NCBI GenBank assembly: GCA_964016885.1
Contig: OZ024761.1
Coordinates: forward strand, 24,676,001-24,740,000
Origin: Eledone cirrhosa
Lineage: Eukaryota
Reading direction: 5' to 3'
DNA length: 64,000 bases
Position numbers and translations under genes: made by a program. How positions within the stretch are numbered: the stretch's first letter is position 1; each line of letters opens with the position of its first letter. Shown one piece after another: positions 3,727 to 63,335 of the stretch. The notes beneath the pieces are model-generated. The model searched no databases. It was not told the DNA's origin and saw only the letters and a program-made list of their open reading frames with translations.

Positions 3727-3781
3727 ACTGCTATATATATTTCAGTGACAGCCATCTTTGGCTGTGACCTCTTCAGGCAGT
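3727..3781 (-). ncRNA. Minimal type I hammerhead ribozyme motif (Penelope-type)
   Basis: actgc-CUGAAGA-ggtcacagcca aaga tggctgtcact-GAA-ATATATAT-A|gcagt: helix I actgc/gcagt, helix II paired, palindromic helix III. Confidence 0.75.
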
Positions 3782-9732: not shown

Positions 9733-28551
<18,819 letters not shown>

Positions 28552-32280: not shown

Positions 32281-35219
32281 ATAGTAATAAATATGAAGAC
32301 AAAAATCCAAAGAGGGCTCGATAAGGATAGATATATATCAAATATATAAGAACCCTAGAGCAAATATTTATTAAAATAACAGATTAAAGTAAAAAATCGC
32401 TGCTTTCACCCTTAAACTTTAATCTGTTATTTTAATATATATATACACATATATGATGGCTGCAAACTCAGGTGGGAGTATTGCAATCGCTTGTCACATT
32501 ACAAAATGGTACACGTTTAGGTTATGGTGAGATACACAAACCTATAACACATCCTGAACAAGCAATGCCTTTGCTTTGAAAGTTTTTTAAGTGGGGAAAG
32601 GCTACCGAAAGGACTATAGTGCCCAAGACACGCCGTATATAACAACGAAGTCGTAACAACTCCATTCTAACTGATGTTCTAACAACGCTACTAATTCGAC
32701 GCCCATAATAGTGAAACATGTGATATAATACATGTATCAATATAGAAATAGTGTCGATTGATTAGTGATATAATTATGTTACGTACCCCGTCACTGTTAC
32801 CTCCATTTCTCTTCTGAAAACAAAAGAGGTGAGAAAATGTAAATGTAAATATAAATGTCAATTCCTCAAGCCATATATTCAGTCAAGAAATAGCCGTTGG
32901 AACGGCTTGAGCGGTGCTGTCGGGATCTTGAACATTTTCATATATATATATATATATATATAAGCCTTGAGTTATTTAATTTGAATATTCAAACAGAACT
33001 CAACACGTTAAGTTCTAGTTTTGAATATGTCACTATCTGTAAAACAACTTTTGTATTTTATCTGATGAGGGCGTACCAAAATAACTAAGCTCTCAAACTA
33101 GTTGAATGCGCAATAAAAAAAACAAGTAGCAATTCTATTTGAAATGCGCACTACTTGACATTGAAACTGCTCTCAAACATTCCAATGAAAAGGAGAGAGC
33201 AGAGAGAAAAATCAGGGCCATAGAAAATATTAAAACAAATCCTAAGGCCGTCTTTAAATTTGCAAACGAGACTGCCTCGGTACGCTGCAGGATTGGACCG
33301 CTCTTCCATAAAGATGGTTCATTAACCGAGGATCCCCAAGGGATAAGCGAAATACTGAACGAACAGTAGAAAAGTGTGTTCACACGTCCACTGAGGCACA
33401 TGCAAATAACAAAGCCAGCGGGTTTATTTGGTTCTAAGGCACCCCATGAATAAATGGCTACCATCAAGCACATAGACATAAAGGAGGAGGATGTGGTAAC
33501 CGCCATAGACGAAATTAGACGAAACTCAGACGAAACTCAGCTGCTGGACCTGATGGATTCCCAGCAGTCCTCCTAAAAATATGTAAGCTTGCATTAGCAA
33601 CTCAACTGACGAACCTCTTCAGAAGCTCCTTGCTAGCGGTAGACTACCCAGAGAGCTGCAAGTAGGCACACTATGCCCTATTCATAAAGGAGGAAGCAGA
33701 ACGGAGGCCAAATACTACAGGCCAGTCTCCCTGATGTCACATATCAGTAATGTCATGGAGCGAATTATCAGAAAGAATCTAACCACGTTCCCCGACCGCC
33801 TGACTAGCATGCAGCATGGCTTTCGCCCAGGAAGGAGCCACCTTACACAGCTCTTACACCATTATGACTGGGTACTGAAACAACTGCTAGACAACGCACA
33901 TGTGGACGTGATATAGATTTGACAAGGTCGCTCACGGAATGAGATGTCGCAAACTGCATAGACTCGGTATAACTGGAAAATTATGTGAGTGGTTGCATGA
34001 CTTCTTAAAGAAGGAGATAAGCTACTGGGAGAGGCTAAAAGAGAGAAGCCAGACAGTTGCAGAAAATAGGGCCCTCTCAAATGAAACATCAATAACAAGT
34101 GGGGTGTCCCAGGGGACAGTCTTGGGACCACTACTGTTTTTGGTGGCTCTCCCAGACATGCCCTCTCTAGTACATACAACATCCCTCACTAGCTATGTTG
34201 ATGACACTAAGGTAGCACAGGCAATCAAAAACCCGACTGACGGTGCCCATTTACAACAAGATCTGGATGCCATATACAAATGGGCTGAGGACAACAAAAT
34301 GAAGTTTAATGCTGGAAAATTGCAAGTCCTACAATACCAACCTGCAAACACAAATACAGTACAACACAGCTACACTGGACGAAGGGGTCGACATTCCCGT
34401 GTCGAAATCGATACGAACCTGGGAATAGACATGAGCGACGATGCATCATTTTCCTCACACATCATGAAGGTGGCGATAATGTCCAGACGACTCGCTGGCT
34501 GGATCTTGAGGACTTTCAAGACAAGAGACTGCGAGACCATGTTGGTACTATGGAGGACACTTGTCCTAAGCCGACTGGACTATTGCTCGCAGCAGTAGTC
34601 ACCCTATGGTGTCAAACTAACCACGGAGCTTGAGGCAATCCAATGAAGCTACATCAAGAGGATTGCGTCGATGAAAGAGATGAGCTACTGGGAGAGGCTA
34701 AAAGAACTGAACCTCTACTCCTTGGAACGAAGATGCGAGAGATACGCAGTGATATACATATGGAAAATCCTGGTAGGACTAGCACCAAACTTTGGTATTC
34801 GGAGCTGGACCAGCCGTCGAATAGGACGTCACTGGGTGGAGCCAAAGTTCCCGACTTCCACATCTAGAATAAGGAGTAGAAATTGCAATAGCCTAGCGTT
34901 CAAAGGATCTCCAGTCTCCAACAAACCGTAATATATATATACATATGTATTACACATATATATATATATAAGTCTACATATTTATACATATGTATTACAT
35001 ATATATATATATATAAGTCTACATATTTATACATATGTATTACACATATATATATATATAAGTCTACATATTTATACATATGTATTACACATATATATAT
35101 ATATAAGTCTACATATTTATACATATGTATTACATATATATATATATATAAGTCTACATATTTATGCATAGATACACACATATGCAATAATCATATATAC
35201 ATATATATATATATATATA

Positions 35220-44543: not shown

Positions 44544-52772
<8,229 letters not shown>

Positions 52773-54028: not shown

Positions 54029-56376
54029 TTACATAAGCGTAAATGTTACAACAGCAGCTGCTGTGAGAAATATTGACGAAATCTTGATCTGTATGGGATA
54101 TATATATATTTTTTTATTTAAATATACATTGTGTTATAGATTCATGTAACTTATACGGATAATTTTACTCTATATGTATGCCCAATATGGGAGCCTGCTG
54201 TCCATGTCCAAAAGCTAGATCCCGACCTCAATGCTACATGCCGCCTCATCACAGCCTGCCTGAAATCTACAGCTAAGGAACGTCTACATATCCTGGCAGG
54301 TATAGCTCCACCAGAGATACGACGAAGTGAATCAAGCAAGAAAGACCGTCAACAATTGACTACAGATAAAAAAATATCCTCTCTTTAGCCGAGTGCCAGC
54401 AAAAGGCCGCCTTAAATCCAGTAAAAGTCTCCAAAAGGAGCACCATGTCACATCTAGCACAGCTCTGTAAATGACACTTATGTAGACACGATAAGAAGAA
54501 GAAGAGTCTATATGATTGTAGCAATGTTCATTAGTGTGACTATTAACAAAAGTAGTAAAAGAAAGGGTATCATATTGATATCATAATAGTTATTGCAATG
54601 CTATCATAGTATAACTAAAACATTTAATCAATGATTAAATGTTTTGATGGGTTTTAATAATTTAATAATATTCAATGTTGATATATTGATATACTGGAAA
54701 TATATTCCATGTAAAATATATTTGGTTACTGCATTAACGAGACAATAAAAACATCAATGTGATAAAGTAGCGTTATGGATATTTATATTAAGTTTAGAAT
54801 AGGTTAAAAGAAAGAGTTTTTGACGGTATATTGACAGAATCTTTAGACCGTCTGATAGAATACTTGAGGTATTAATTTCGAGCCTCACCGTTTCGTGACT
54901 TCAAATATAGAGGCGGTCCCCTTTAGCTGTAAGGAAGTCGATAACATGTATCAGTCCGATACTTGGGTCGATATTTCGTTTATATCTCTTTTTCACTTCC
55001 TCTCTTTCATTGTCATAATCGTTTCACTTATTATTTGGCAGACATCACCCGTGATCAGACGCGGTATAGGGAAGGGCTACCGAAAGGACTATAGTGCCCA
55101 AAACACGCCGTATATAACAACGATGCCATAACAACTCCATTCTAACTGAAGTTCTAACAATGCTAATAATTCTACGCCCCTAATAGTGAAACATGTGATA
55201 TAATACATGCATCAATATTGAAATACCTTTGATTGATTAGTGATATAATTATGTTACTTACCCTGTCTCTGCTACTTCCATTTTTCCTCTGAAAACAAAA
55301 GAGTTGAGAAAATAGAAATGTCAATTGATAAAGCCTTATGTATATATATATATATATATAATGAAATTATTGTGTACAGTGCTCAGGTGCACTACAACTC
55401 ATCAAAGGTGCATGTATATTACATAGAATAATGTACAAATGTCAGGAAAATGAACAGTGTATGAGTCATGATATAATAATAATAATAATAATAATAATGA
55501 AATATTGTGTACACTGCCCAGGTGCACCACAACTCATCAAAAATTGCATGTACAGTACATAGGGCAATGCACAAACATCAGTAAAATGAACAGTGCACGA
55601 GTGATGATACACACATGTGTGCATGTGTGTGGAAGGGGTACATCAGGTGTAGTTTTGGCGTATTTCGGGAAGCATGAGTGTCTTAAAGGATGCAGTGTCT
55701 CGGCAGCTAACAACTGACGCAGGCTGTTTGTTCCATGCTTCAGCAACTCTGCGCGTGAAAAAATGTCTACGAAAGTCATGGGAGCTGTGTTGTTTTCTGA
55801 TTGTGTAGGCATGTCCACGTGTGTTAGACACATGGAGATCAAAAAGAGGCTCAGGGTTACAATTGGCGAGATGGGTAATAACTTTGTGGGTATTCACCAA
55901 GTCCATTGCCAGACGTCTCAGCTTCAATGAATCCATGCCCAGGGAAGCAAGCCGTTCAGAGTATGGTAGGTGTCTGATGGAGGGTATGCGCTTGGTTGCA
56001 CGTCTCTGAACAGTTTCCAGGATGTCAATGTTCTGAGAAAGATAGGGGTCCCAGACTAATGATGCGAATTATATATATACAATATATTAACAAATGGAAA
56101 CTATATTTATAAAACCATATTTATTTCATTATACATATTTCAAGGGCCACCAAGGAAAATTATGGTGCGCTTTCATCAGATAAAATATGTGAAAGCGCAC
56201 CATAATTTGCCTTGGTGGTCCTTGAAATATGTATAATGAAATAAATATTGGTTTATAAATACAGTTGCCATTTGTTAATATATTGTTAATAATTTATTGA
56301 GTGGTTCATATCAGTTATAAAAATATTTTGCTTGTTGTATCCCAACAAATTAAATATAACCTCTACAAACACACAA

Positions 56377-56696: not shown

Positions 56697-57836
56697 GACA
56701 TGTGTATATATACATATGTATTACATATGTATAACATATATAAGTCTATATATTTATATAGATACATACACATAAAGAAATCATATACTTATATACATAC
56801 ATATATCTTTACATATATATATGCATATATTCTTATACTTGGTAAGGCTCATATTGTCATAATAGTGTCCTCTGTGCTGTCAAATATATCTGGGAACATC
56901 TCAATTATGGGGCGTATAATCATCGATAGAAAGTAGATCCTGTAGTTGCCAGCAGTATTAGCTCCGCATACAGGTCTTGTTGGTGGTTCTGTCGTCGGTT
57001 TGTTGTTTGACTTATGGTCTTTGCGGAGGCCACATAAGTGTGGTATGTTGTTTTTAGACGCATGGAAGTTGTTGGTCGAGCGTCTACTTGGCTTTAGGAT
57101 GTTGGTCCACATCATCATGTCAGCGTTGATGGTCTTTTCTCTCTCCTCATATGTTTGTTGTATTGTGTCGCTCGGGTTGATGATGTGGGCTTACATAGCC
57201 TCGATATAGGTCGGAATGCTAGCTATTGACATCCTACTAGACATCTGCGCTGCTTGAGGCTAGGTAGGCTTCTACAGGTTTTCCTCCATGTATATATACA
57301 TATACATTACTGAAAATAAAAATAAACCTAACAGTAACTTACCGCACATTCGAGTTTCTTTCTGTTTATGTACCAATCTTCACAAACCCGATAAGCTCCG
57401 ATGACGCACCACATAAATTGTTTGGCGTTACTGTAATACGATTGAAATGACAATCTCCTTCAAAAAATAGCATATAGGCGCGTGTGTGGGTCTATGAAGG
57501 AGTGATGCTAGGGCTATGAAATCTTGTGTGCGTTAGTTGCAACTCTTATTAATAACGACATTGTTCCTTACCAGATAAACCTCATTTGATCATTGTGTAA
57601 GAGTATCGTGCTCAGCCTATAAAACATTCAGTCTACACAAGTATATATTTTTATCTAAAGAAATATTTCCCAAATCCACTCCGCCCGGGCCTTCAATCTA
57701 TCTAATTTCAGATTCTTTCTTCCGATGAAGAAACGTTAAGGCTCTCTTCCTGTTATTTACAGTGCTAAACTAATATATTGCTTCCTTATACTGTACCGAT
57801 TGTGTTGTTATTTCTGTTAACCCTTTGAATATATAT

Positions 57837-59029: not shown

Positions 59030-60010
59030 GAATTATACATATATAAAGATAATTGTAGCTATATATAAATATATATATATAGAGATAAATCTACCAAAAT
59101 ATACGGTATTGTCCAATCCGTATGAAGAACTCAATGTACTCCAAATATCACGAACAGAGAAGATGCATTCAAACATTTTCGATGAAAATCATAGGAAAAC
59201 AGATTCAAGATAAATTAATAAGTATAATGAATAAAAACAAAGAACAATATTTTTATATGAAAAAATTCATCATTTTACGATCGTTTCTAGGATATATATG
59301 TGTGTTGGTGTGTATATCATATAGATCAATGTAAAAATATTACAAACTATCAGACGAAATATACATACCTTCACATATATATGCTGTCTTCAGAAATGAT
59401 GAGATTTGTTAATTCCATATGAATGAATATAAATTTATCCCTATAAGTATACCTATCAATTAATTTAATTTCTTGGTATAGATCTAGATTCCTTGTGGTT
59501 TAAATAAGATTGATATTTCTCACTAATACCCTTACCCTAAAATTTTACTTTCCTTCGTTTTTAACATTATTCTTTAATAACATCACATTTTCGTGTACCC
59601 TTCACCGTCTTGACCTCTTTTCATCCCCCAAATATTCATTTAATTCAAAGTATTCTTTCCATTCAAAAGATAAGTCTGCACTCCTCTACCCCTAAATTAA
59701 ATTTCTACTATTACTATTCTATCAACTTGGCCTCTTACTACTTTTCTATTGGTCAATTCAAAACCTGTTCCCAAACAGACCTATTAAATTAAATCTTTGT
59801 TGGTTTTTTTCAATAAACAAATCTCATCACTCTGAAGACAGCATATATATGTGAAGGTATGTATATTTCCTATGATAGTTTGTAATATTTTTACATTGAT
59901 CTATATGATATACATACCAACACAAATATATCCTAGAAACGATCGTAAAATTATGGATGTTTTAATATAAGGAAGTTGTTCTTTGTTTTTATTCATTGTT
60001 TTTATTAACT

Positions 60011-60045
<35 letters not shown>

Positions 60046-60561: not shown

Positions 60562-61063
60562 TACAACTACTTAAGGCTTTTTATGCTCAGGTTGACAAAG
60601 GTACGAGGGTCTGCTGAAATCTTCATGGACTATCTATACATGATTGGTGCTACGGCTGTGAAATCTTACATGCATTAAGAGTATCTTGGTCAGTCTATGA
60701 ACTTCTCAGGCTAAGAAAGATTAAGCTGTCCCTCGTGCTACTCGCCCAGTGTAACAATATCTCCTGAATGAAATAAAAAGAGTTGTTCGGTATAAAAACA
60801 GAGAATATAAGAGAACAGGTAATTTAGTGACGTTGATTAGATAGAAAACATGGAAAATATACTTACGGTTAAAGCAGAGAGAAGATCCTGAAATAAAACA
60901 GAGGGCCGATGTGTGAGTTGTGGTTAATCAATGAGGTATTGTGTATGTGTATATTAGAGTATGGGTGTAAGGGTGAGCATTTATCAAACAATAGATTCAT
61001 GGATGGATAGACGCGCGCGAACGCACACACGCACACATACACGCACACACACACACATACACG

Positions 61064-61100
<37 letters not shown>

Positions 61101-61383
61101 CCACTAACATACATACACACACATACATACATACACACAGAGCTCAAGCCCTTTCGACGGCTATTTCCAGAAATAGCCGTCGAAACGGCTTGAGCTCTGC
61201 CGTCGGGATTAAGCATTTTCCTATACACGCACACACACACATACATATACTTACAGATACACACGAGCTACTGGCCAAATATATTGAGTCGCCAAATATT
61301 CTTTATACAAGTTGAAAGTATGTATGTATACATATATATAAATATATACATACACATGTACATGTACACACATACACACACTC

Positions 61384-61432
<49 letters not shown>

Positions 61433-61575
61433 TATATTTACACATACACACGAGCTACTGGACAAATATATTGAGTCGACAAATATTGTTTATATAAGTT
61501 GTATATATTTATATATATGTATACATATATATAAATATAAACATACGCATGTACATGTACACACACATACACACA

Positions 61576-61613
<38 letters not shown>

Positions 61614-63335
61614 TATTTAATACATTAACAGAGAAAGCTTTAAGCAATACTCCGACCGGCTTCCGTCTCACTCAACAAACACTAGGATATACCTTAGTAT
61701 AATCCCAATTATACGTTTGGGGTGCTAACTATACGTATTTTGCGGATAGCCAGTTGTATTATTTTATATGAGACATAATTAAAATACATCTCTCTTTCCA
61801 AACGATCGTTTCATTATAAGTTTCCTACAAATTGGGAAAATAATATCCTGGTTATGTAGAAGCCTACACATAGTCCGTAGGAATATATGTAGGTGGGCAC
61901 TTATAAATCATCAGTGGATGCCTGACAAATATCGATATAAAAAAAAACCTTACCGATATAATGTCCAGCGATGGTACCCCTCCTTGCTAGAATGACCGCC
62001 AAATTTGAAATTCCTGCAGTCTCACAATGAGAAATCTCACACTGCCATCAAGCGGAAATGGGGGGTCATCGCAAAACATAAAATAATAAAATAATATGCA
62101 CGCGGGCCAATTAAATCTTTCAATAATTTTAACCATGCGTGAAGAACTCAATTGGATATAAAAAAATAAATATATGCATGTAGTATTTATACACGTATAT
62201 AGGTATTTTCTTAGGCTAAAAACAGAGATAAGATACCGGAAGAACAATCAATATTTCATACAAAGGATAAATACGGAAAGTCATACCTAAAAGGTATCTG
62301 TAAATATCATCCCTGGCCAAATCACGAGTATAATATTGAATACATTAACAGAGAAAGGTTTAAGCAATACTCCGACCGGCTTCCGTCTCACTCAACAAAC
62401 ATTAGGATATACCTTAGTATAATCCCAATTATACGTTTGGGGTGCTAACTATACGTATTTTGCGGATAGCCAGTTGTATTATTTTATATGCGACATAATT
62501 AAAATACATATCTCTTTCCAAACGATCGTTTCATTATAAGTTTTCTACAAATTGGGAAAATAATGTCCAGGTTATGTAGAAGCCTACACATAGTCCGTAG
62601 GAATATATGTATGTGGGTACTTATAAATCATCAGTGGATGCCCGACAGATATATATATATATATATATCGAGTGAGTGTGAAAGACCAAATGTCATTGTT
62701 GAATGGCTCTGTGTGTATATAATTTTTATTGGAGAAGGTAACAACGCTCTCTTCCACAGTCTATTCTAAATAATAGTATACTATACATTCACAATTATTT
62801 AAAAATTCAATTATAACATTCTGTATTAACATTTAGTATTAATGTATGCTGCCTGTAATATGTATCGTATATATACACTATAATTAGTAAAAATACATAT
62901 TTTTTCCAGCAAAACCTTGATTGCACTGTTTTGTTCTCTCTTATGTATTTTTTAAAAATGTTATTTATTCATTATAAAAATTAAATGATAGCAGTCTATA
63001 TGTGGTGGTGGGGACCGTTGTCTCCTGGTAACCAATATCTTTAGACCCAGTCCGCCACTGAATATAGTACCATATAAATATTCTAGTTCATACATACCGA
63101 TATATTTACACAAGCACATGCACTCACACATATATACTTATATATACATATATACACAGAAACACGCAAACACACACACTTATATATACATATGCATACA
63201 TCTGTACATACACACGCCCACTTATCTATACCGAGGATTTCACACATTTTCCAATATATATATATTTATATATACACATACACTTTACTACTTACCAATG
63301 AAGAGAAGGAGTAGAAACATTGCAGCTTTCATCAT
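54029..63335 (-). CDS. Gene E: paralog, 105 aa ([105 protein letters not shown])
   Basis: Exons 63296-63335, 60867-60887, 58304-58385, 57343-57430, 55262-55288, 54029-54088. GT-AG ends (exon 5 donor is the perfect GTAAGT), 318-nt open frame. Confidence 0.87.
55360..56068 (-). mobile_element. CR1-type LINE 3' end with tandemly repeated 3' tail, inserted in gene E only
   Basis: [13 protein letters not shown]...YSERLASLG...TRGHAYTI...[11 protein letters not shown] motifs. Repeated tail at 55361-55470 and 55497-55610. Absent at the homologous site in gene D (about 46080). Confidence 0.85.
57907..58012 (-). pseudogene. Relic pseudo-exon (C-type exon 3) in intron 3 of gene E
   Basis: Duplicate of 47933-48038; reads [15 protein letters not shown]...; acceptor lost, stops present. 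Confidence 0.6.
61620..62650 (-). mobile_element. Non-autonomous Penelope/retrozyme-like element: two ~310-bp direct repeats (61620-61930, 62340-62650), each with a hammerhead (61797-61918, 62517-62638)
   Basis: Exact 720-bp period. Each repeat reads tcca-CUGAUGA-tttataagt[long structured loop]acttataat-GAA-ACGATCGT-U|tgga on the minus strand. It is flanked by (TA)n and absent from the gene D copy. Confidence 0.75.

Follow-up and report, generated by a model that had tools for sequence, protein, structure and literature searches.

Paired Penelope-type hammerheads with a large, branched helix II domain in an intron of a putative secreted-peptide gene

The pseudo-LTRs (pLTRs) of Penelope-like elements (PLEs) carry minimal hammerhead ribozymes in which helix I spans 4-5 bp and has an ill-defined loop 1, helix II spans 7-8 bp, an extra base follows A9, and helix III is palindromic (Cervera and de la Pena 2014, PMC4209133). 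The published descriptor for these motifs has a loop 2 of 3-10 nt and a consensus G10.1-C11.1 pair. Minimal dimers of the S. mansoni hammerhead cleave weakly (PMC4209133), and in Anolis the PLE hammerhead requires protein for cleavage and is not needed for in vitro insertion (PMC11167929). Partial tandems are known among PLE insertions, as are 5′ junctions with microhomology, targets of (TA)n, and non-coding stretches between the pLTRs (Arkhipova et al. 2013, PMC3846280; Craig et al. 2021, PMC8557442). Targeting of AT-rich and (TA)n sites has been described (PMC8557442, PMC11167929), and the 30-40-bp PLE tail is optional (PMC8557442, PMC3846280). Animal retrozymes have been argued to be derivatives of PLE pLTRs (Li, Clavereau and Pollet 2026, bioRxiv 10.64898/2026.07.22.740005), so a PLE tail and a retrozyme, the two readings weighed most closely below, fall within one known continuum. 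Both PLE pseudo-LTR hammerheads and PLE-derived retrozymes are in print, and the class of the element described here is thus known.

Within the window (the whole 64-kb stretch of DNA analyzed here), positions 61613-62658 form a non-coding repeat-spacer-repeat block of 1.04 kb set in a (TA)n tract. An earlier model reading of the letters (the sequence-only reading) had described direct repeats of ~310 bp with a 720-bp period. A repeat finder returns a period of exactly 720 (97% over 300 bp), and comparison of 61613-61930 with 62333-62650 shows 12 differences over 318 positions (96% identical). The locus comprises 1.44 repeat units (1040 bp/720), with the following layout:

60764-63295, minus strand: first coding intron of host gene E, a small secreted Cys-rich peptide gene of a tandem family (inferred model)
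62651-62668, unstranded: right (TA)n target tract, matched in paralogue D by a single (TA)n
62333-62658, minus strand: repeat R2, the 5′ pseudo-LTR-like copy, starting ~16-24 nt before the hammerhead core, with AT microhomology to the target (TA)n
62517-62638, minus strand: hammerhead A, type I and PLE-type, with CUGAUGA at 62634, a 95-nt helix II domain, GAAA at 62532, palindrome ACGAUCGU, and a predicted cut 3′ of 62521
62533-62627, minus strand: branched helix II domain of hammerhead A, with a U.U mismatch, a 7-8-bp stem, and two hairpins
61939-62332, minus strand: spacer U, non-coding, single in the window and multicopy in organism A, a related species
61613-61938, minus strand: repeat R1, the 3′ pseudo-LTR-like copy, whose 3′ end adjoins (AT)n
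61797-61918, minus strand: hammerhead B, laid out as A, with CUGAUGA at 61914, GAAA at 61812, and a predicted cut 3′ of 61801
61801-62520, minus strand: predicted RNA of 720 nt that double cleavage would release
61580-61612, unstranded: left (TA)n target tract

The host gene model was inferred from the sequence using splice signals common to the paralogues. The gene runs on the minus strand; its signal-peptide exon extends to 63296 and the exon after it begins at 60763, so both hammerheads are sense to it, in the first intron, as first proposed. When the intron of paralogue D is aligned, the block is missing and an empty (TA)n site is found at its position, which bears out the claim that the element is absent from the sister gene. 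The flanks consist of (TA)n, and no TSD is discernible. Pfam recognizes no family in the block in five of five stop-to-stop frames tested, and neither these searches nor tblastx, among the matches listed, reveals an ORF with RT and GIY-YIG domains, in line with the RT-less interval reported earlier. The longest ATG ORF around the 720-nt unit encodes 49 aa. The block is therefore not an autonomous PLE, and that candidate was rejected. The spacer is likely to be either the 3′ UTR of a PLE or the body of a non-autonomous unit.

Each repeat does contain the type I hammerhead, with a palindromic helix III and a GUU site, that had been assigned to it. The core elements CUGANGA, GAAA, A15.1-U16.1, and an NUH triplet are complete in both copies, the last U of the GUU triplet (H17) lies at 62521 and 61801, and the helix III palindrome of both copies is ACGATCGT. 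The type I descriptor finds no match at any of three stringencies in 3000 dinucleotide shuffles of the 720-bp unit. As in PLE minimal hammerheads (PMC4209133), helix I falls within 4-5 bp (here 4 bp, without loop 1), helix II is 7-8 bp, an extra base follows A9, helix III is palindromic, the motifs lie in two direct repeats, and dimer pairing is predicted to be necessary. The present motifs differ from these in lacking the G10.1-C11.1 pair, which is replaced by a U.U mismatch followed by U-A, in having a loop 2 of ~77 nt rather than 3-10 nt, and in having no ORF between the repeats. Rfam returns no match at gathering score in the whole window; in 61000-63200, 47 matches up to E 10 include no hammerhead family.

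The ribozyme variant with its 95-nt branched helix II is the unusual part of this locus. Core boxes are separated by 95 nt in each copy, and this domain folds into a basal stem carrying two hairpins, with z-scores against shuffles of -4.8 (0 of 200 as stable) and -3.8 (1 of 200); the large, structured helix II that the sequence-only reading pointed out thus stands. One hairpin of copy A is shortened by a change private to that copy. In Naiad, core halves are 35-50 nt apart in eight cases (Craig et al. 2021, PMC8557442). The literature searched, which included passages of PMC3088659, PMC13725137, PMC10085705, and PMC13282606, showed no PLE hammerhead whose helix II domain comes close to 100 nt; the newness of such a domain is provisional because this search did not cover the survey of PLE hammerhead variants by Lunse et al. 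2017.

Ensemble folding of the whole block places the two palindromes in contact with each other (p 0.96-0.97) rather than folded within a copy (p 0.01), and the helix II stems form at p 0.65-0.91. Helix I forms at p ≤0.02. The predicted palindrome pairing over-extends into the core and breaks helix I, giving an inactive register. Constrained folding puts the double hammerhead 10.4 kcal/mol and two monomers 15.3 kcal/mol above the minimum, so that the double form is 4.9 kcal/mol better than the monomers; these energies leave out the tertiary contacts of the core. The models thus predict docking of the two palindromes in cis without predicting activity, and the in-cis pairing first proposed holds as a predicted contact but not as a cleaving arrangement. 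As a predicted fold, the 720-nt circle is 64% paired with a z-score of -3.65 (1 of 60 shuffles), and spacer U alone reaches -2.45 (2 of 100 shuffles), a value bettered by one of six control stretches.

Seven of 12 listed sequencing runs contain part of the stretch, none contains half of its words, and no RNA run is listed. Four of the 12 were aligned to 61890-63100 at 85% likeness. In organism A, 2032 contigs and 3382 reads aligned, most of them 85-95% alike and part of them on a separate right-flank repeat. Distinct variant contigs number 60-64 per position over R and 13-35 over U; because many distinct contigs cover single positions, both R and U are multicopy in this organism. Read depth was not used as a copy number. 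Among the matches listed, R terminates at 62333 against (AT)n in 160 reads, as R1 ends in the window, defining a fixed 3′ end. The U-R junction is present in 25 reads that extend 66 letters or more to either side of the 720 joint, and cover at 61939 is continuous. Reads cover U over its full length; 147 of them include 62325, which lies 8 nt short of the R-U junction. Some contigs, among the matches listed, leave the stretch at 61922 or 61946, and R is therefore also used behind other upstream sequence. Organism B contributed 15 contigs, together with 2 reads from ~1% of one Hi-C run.

The commonest organism A variants replace one helix II hairpin with a different 25-nt stretch, which, read by eye, contains a perfect 8-bp stem with a 6-nt loop. 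This comparison lends modest support to the shape of the helix II domain having been kept in relatives. A module 3′ of the hammerhead (62387-62500) occurs in relatives with other flanks, its loose ends at 62387, 62430, and 62435 appearing in 167-509 reads among the matches listed, which suggests mosaic subfamilies of the element. The intron flank at 62741-63078 is likewise multicopy in organism A, where numerous variants carry internal deletions and are joined at 62741; the right flank, intended as a single-copy control, is repetitive from ~62741. Metagenome scans with two family patterns gave no matches with either. A viral scan with a gapped core pattern gave 32; by blastn at E 0.01 none of these resembles the element, and they were taken as chance.

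Divergence between R1 and R2 (12 of 318) equals that between the flanks of D and E (16 of 420; Fisher p 1.0). Relatives share the R1 base at four of the differing positions and the R2 base at one, so each repeat copy has private changes. These figures are consistent with repeats that were identical at insertion, at about the time D and E split, and then drifted. None of the 12 differences falls within the 45 core and helix positions, which is not significant (P 0.15).

The reading that we favor, at slightly above even odds, is that a PLE family supplied the block as its 3′ tail, which a PLE RT/endonuclease acting in trans inserted in partial-tandem form and which has since been drifting. Direct pseudo-LTRs with a sense hammerhead, an AT-rich (TA)n target, and, in the relative's data, a dispersed family with a fixed 3′ end are all features of PLE insertions. 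The block shares with partial-tandem and non-autonomous PLE insertions (PMC3846280, PMC8557442) the pLTR-spacer-pLTR order, the (TA)n target without a discernible TSD, 5′ microhomology, and non-coding sequence between pLTRs, and the Penelope-type, pLTR-like character given to it by the sequence-only reading is upheld by this architecture and by the predicted pairing of palindromes between copies. It differs from them in having no 30-40-bp tail, R1 exceeding R2 by at most ~4 nt before (AT)n. A second locus in the window provides a local point of comparison:

25680-27192, minus strand: 3′ part of a PLE that ends at a long (TA)n array, comprising a GIY-YIG frame, 533 non-coding nt, and a hammerhead whose helix II domain is 36 nt

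The GIY-YIG remnant within it (26267-26845) scores 0.95 to GIY-YIG clusters in the Atlas and is followed 533 nt downstream by the hammerhead; Pfam and PDB sequence searches do not recognize it. Given these 533 nt, the ~425 non-coding nt before the core in our block are normal for a PLE 3′ end here, and a missing RT cannot separate a retrozyme from a truncated PLE tail.

Under the PLE-tail reading, an endonuclease would nick the AT-rich target and reverse transcription would begin at the fixed 3′ end of the family, ~188 nt past the hammerhead cut. R and U would be copied first and a shorter second R afterward, either off a multimer or circle or by jumping between templates, and the 5′ end would join through ATAT microhomology. 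The insertion overshoots both cut sites, by ~130 nt on the 5′ side of the first and by 188 nt on the 3′ side of the second, so a linear cleaved monomer was presumably not the template; an uncleaved multimer, a circle, or two joined templates would serve. Once the host intron is transcribed, the palindromic helix III of each R is predicted to pair with the other copy. Cuts at 62521 and 61801 may then occur, probably slowly or in dependence on protein, and the 720-nt RNA would arise as a by-product, not as a function of the host. Several observations count against this account: the lack of a tail distinguishing the R ends, the whole-length cover of U in organism A, which also fits a unit that moves whole, the predicted folds of U and of the 720-nt circle, and the confinement of all 12 differences to positions outside the core and helices.

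A true non-LTR retrozyme is a possible but doubtful alternative. The block would then belong to a 720-nt non-autonomous family that is cleaved twice, ligated into a circle, and copied through 1.44 turns by a PLE RT. Like metazoan retrozymes (Cervera and de la Pena 2020, PMC7229834; bioRxiv 10.64898/2026.07.22.740005), it is a non-coding, low-GC unit with one type I hammerhead per period, here two in tandem, with cleavage predicted to depend on the dimer and with helix II starting from a U.U, a feature shared with axolotl HHR_Amex2, which is weakly active (PMC7229834). The two hammerheads are intact and in register, the inter-copy helix III and the advantage of the double fold over two monomers are predicted, the putative circle is well paired, U and its junction with R exist in organism A, and 720 nt lies inside the 51-972 bp range of vertebrate families (bioRxiv 10.64898/2026.07.22.740005). 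Metazoan retrozymes differ, however, in having two or more complete units in succession, or arrays, where only 1.44 units occur here, in expressed invertebrate circles of ~170-400 nt (PMC7229834), and in lacking a PLE-type hammerhead with a large branched helix II. The hammerhead is moreover of the slow PLE type, without a loop 1 for loop-loop contact or the G10.1-C11.1 pair; its active fold lies well above the minimum, with helix I rarely formed and the palindrome over-extended. Xenopus dimer elements showed no cleavage in 8 of 9 cases (bioRxiv 10.64898/2026.07.22.740005). Excision of a 720-nt RNA, as the sequence-only reading had it, is accordingly conceivable but not favored. That reading had set against its own proposal a simple PLE truncation without independent copies: related copies of R and U do exist in organism A, and a simple truncation may still apply.

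Plant LTR retrozymes resemble the block in having two hammerhead repeats of ~300 bp flanking a non-coding middle and circles of 600-1000 nt (PMC7229834; bioRxiv 10.64898/2026.07.22.740005). Their hammerheads are type III and they have PBS/PPT and 4-bp TSDs, whereas the hammerheads here are type I, in a microsatellite target of (TA)n flanks without a discernible 4-bp TSD; a plant-type element was rejected on these grounds.

It is improbable that the tandem arose purely as DNA and had no RNA stage, a single U-R insertion later having its R duplicated locally through repair or unequal exchange within the microsatellite. Other local tandem duplications do occur in the region, such as 187-bp and 163-bp dimers adjoining (TA)n, but a local duplication would give R beside R rather than R flanking U, and partial tandems are a standard PLE product (PMC3846280, PMC8557442).

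Less probable still, and rejected here, is an intronic ribozyme adopted by the host to regulate gene E by cutting its pre-mRNA. The sense orientation, the position in the first coding intron, and a core unaltered in both copies would suit such a role. Against it, the element is missing from paralogue D, its repeats drift at the rate of the neutral flank, a private change has shortened one hairpin of copy A, and similar motifs are scattered over the window on either strand; in Xenopus, introns in any case harbor 42-44% of retrozyme copies (bioRxiv 10.64898/2026.07.22.740005). As a feature of the host gene, the element is probably inconsequential. A chance motif or assembly artifact, to which the silence of Rfam on hammerheads might point, is rejected as next to impossible given the shuffles without a match, the family in relatives, and the 12 differences between R1 and R2, which show that they are not a duplicated read set.

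On the favored PLE-tail reading, the 95-nt branched helix II domain is a trait of the element's RNA family and not of this locus. Enlarged helix II domains are present in at least two families within the window. A relaxed scan of all 64 kb finds 13 palindromic type I motifs, on both strands, whose helix II domains measure 12, 14, 26, 27, 31, 31, 36, 45, 95, 95, 99, 99, and 99 nt; such motifs are common mobile-element debris in the window. Since domains of 95-99 nt exceed the 3-10 nt loop limit and escape Rfam, hammerhead counts in such genomes would be too low. The locus, a natural dimer in cis whose large domain could be removed, offers an accessible handle on the purpose of PLE hammerheads and on their poor cutting without protein. 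More speculatively, and in our view unlikely as a whole, the PLE-linked hammerheads of this lineage might have helix II grown into a structured domain of 95-99 nt, branched or rod-like, forming a large uncounted class invisible to Rfam and published descriptors. The domain, kept in relatives with a rewritten hairpin, might be a docking site for an element protein that switches the docked, inactive dimer to cutting, with a 720-nt circular retrozyme released from host introns.

The second of these families, at 59212-60011 and 49555-50360, has a rod-like helix II domain of 99 nt and a GUA site, shares the palindrome ACGAUCGU, and is arranged as outward-facing inverted pairs around a ~400-bp spacer. 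It is older than the duplication of D and E because it is present in both paralogues. By blastn it has no similarity to R, and none of its 31 pairs shows covariation, the four copies being too alike. Further palindromic type I motifs of several families, with helix II of 12-45 nt, lie at 3776, 6924, 16208, 22601, 27599, 40637, and 49243, and more degenerate hammerhead motifs lie at 521/529, 33062, 41273, 46229, and 56179. A retroelement remnant at 33587-34931 on the plus strand includes an RVT_1 match at 33912-34598. Three minus-strand segments (55643-56068, and 46891-47232 with 56849-57190) resemble by motif LINE ends and Penelope-type RT fragments, which we presume them to be.

The tandem family to which the host gene belongs comprises about five genes for small secreted Cys-rich peptides at 9312-63335 on the minus strand; two exons of the gene family have no Pfam match. 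In each of the three copies found (60746, 51263, and 38290), an 18-nt micro-exon of this family apparently uses a GC donor. Both paralogous introns also contain a near-perfect 58-bp palindrome, a small inverted-repeat element, at 61140-61197 and 51669-51729.
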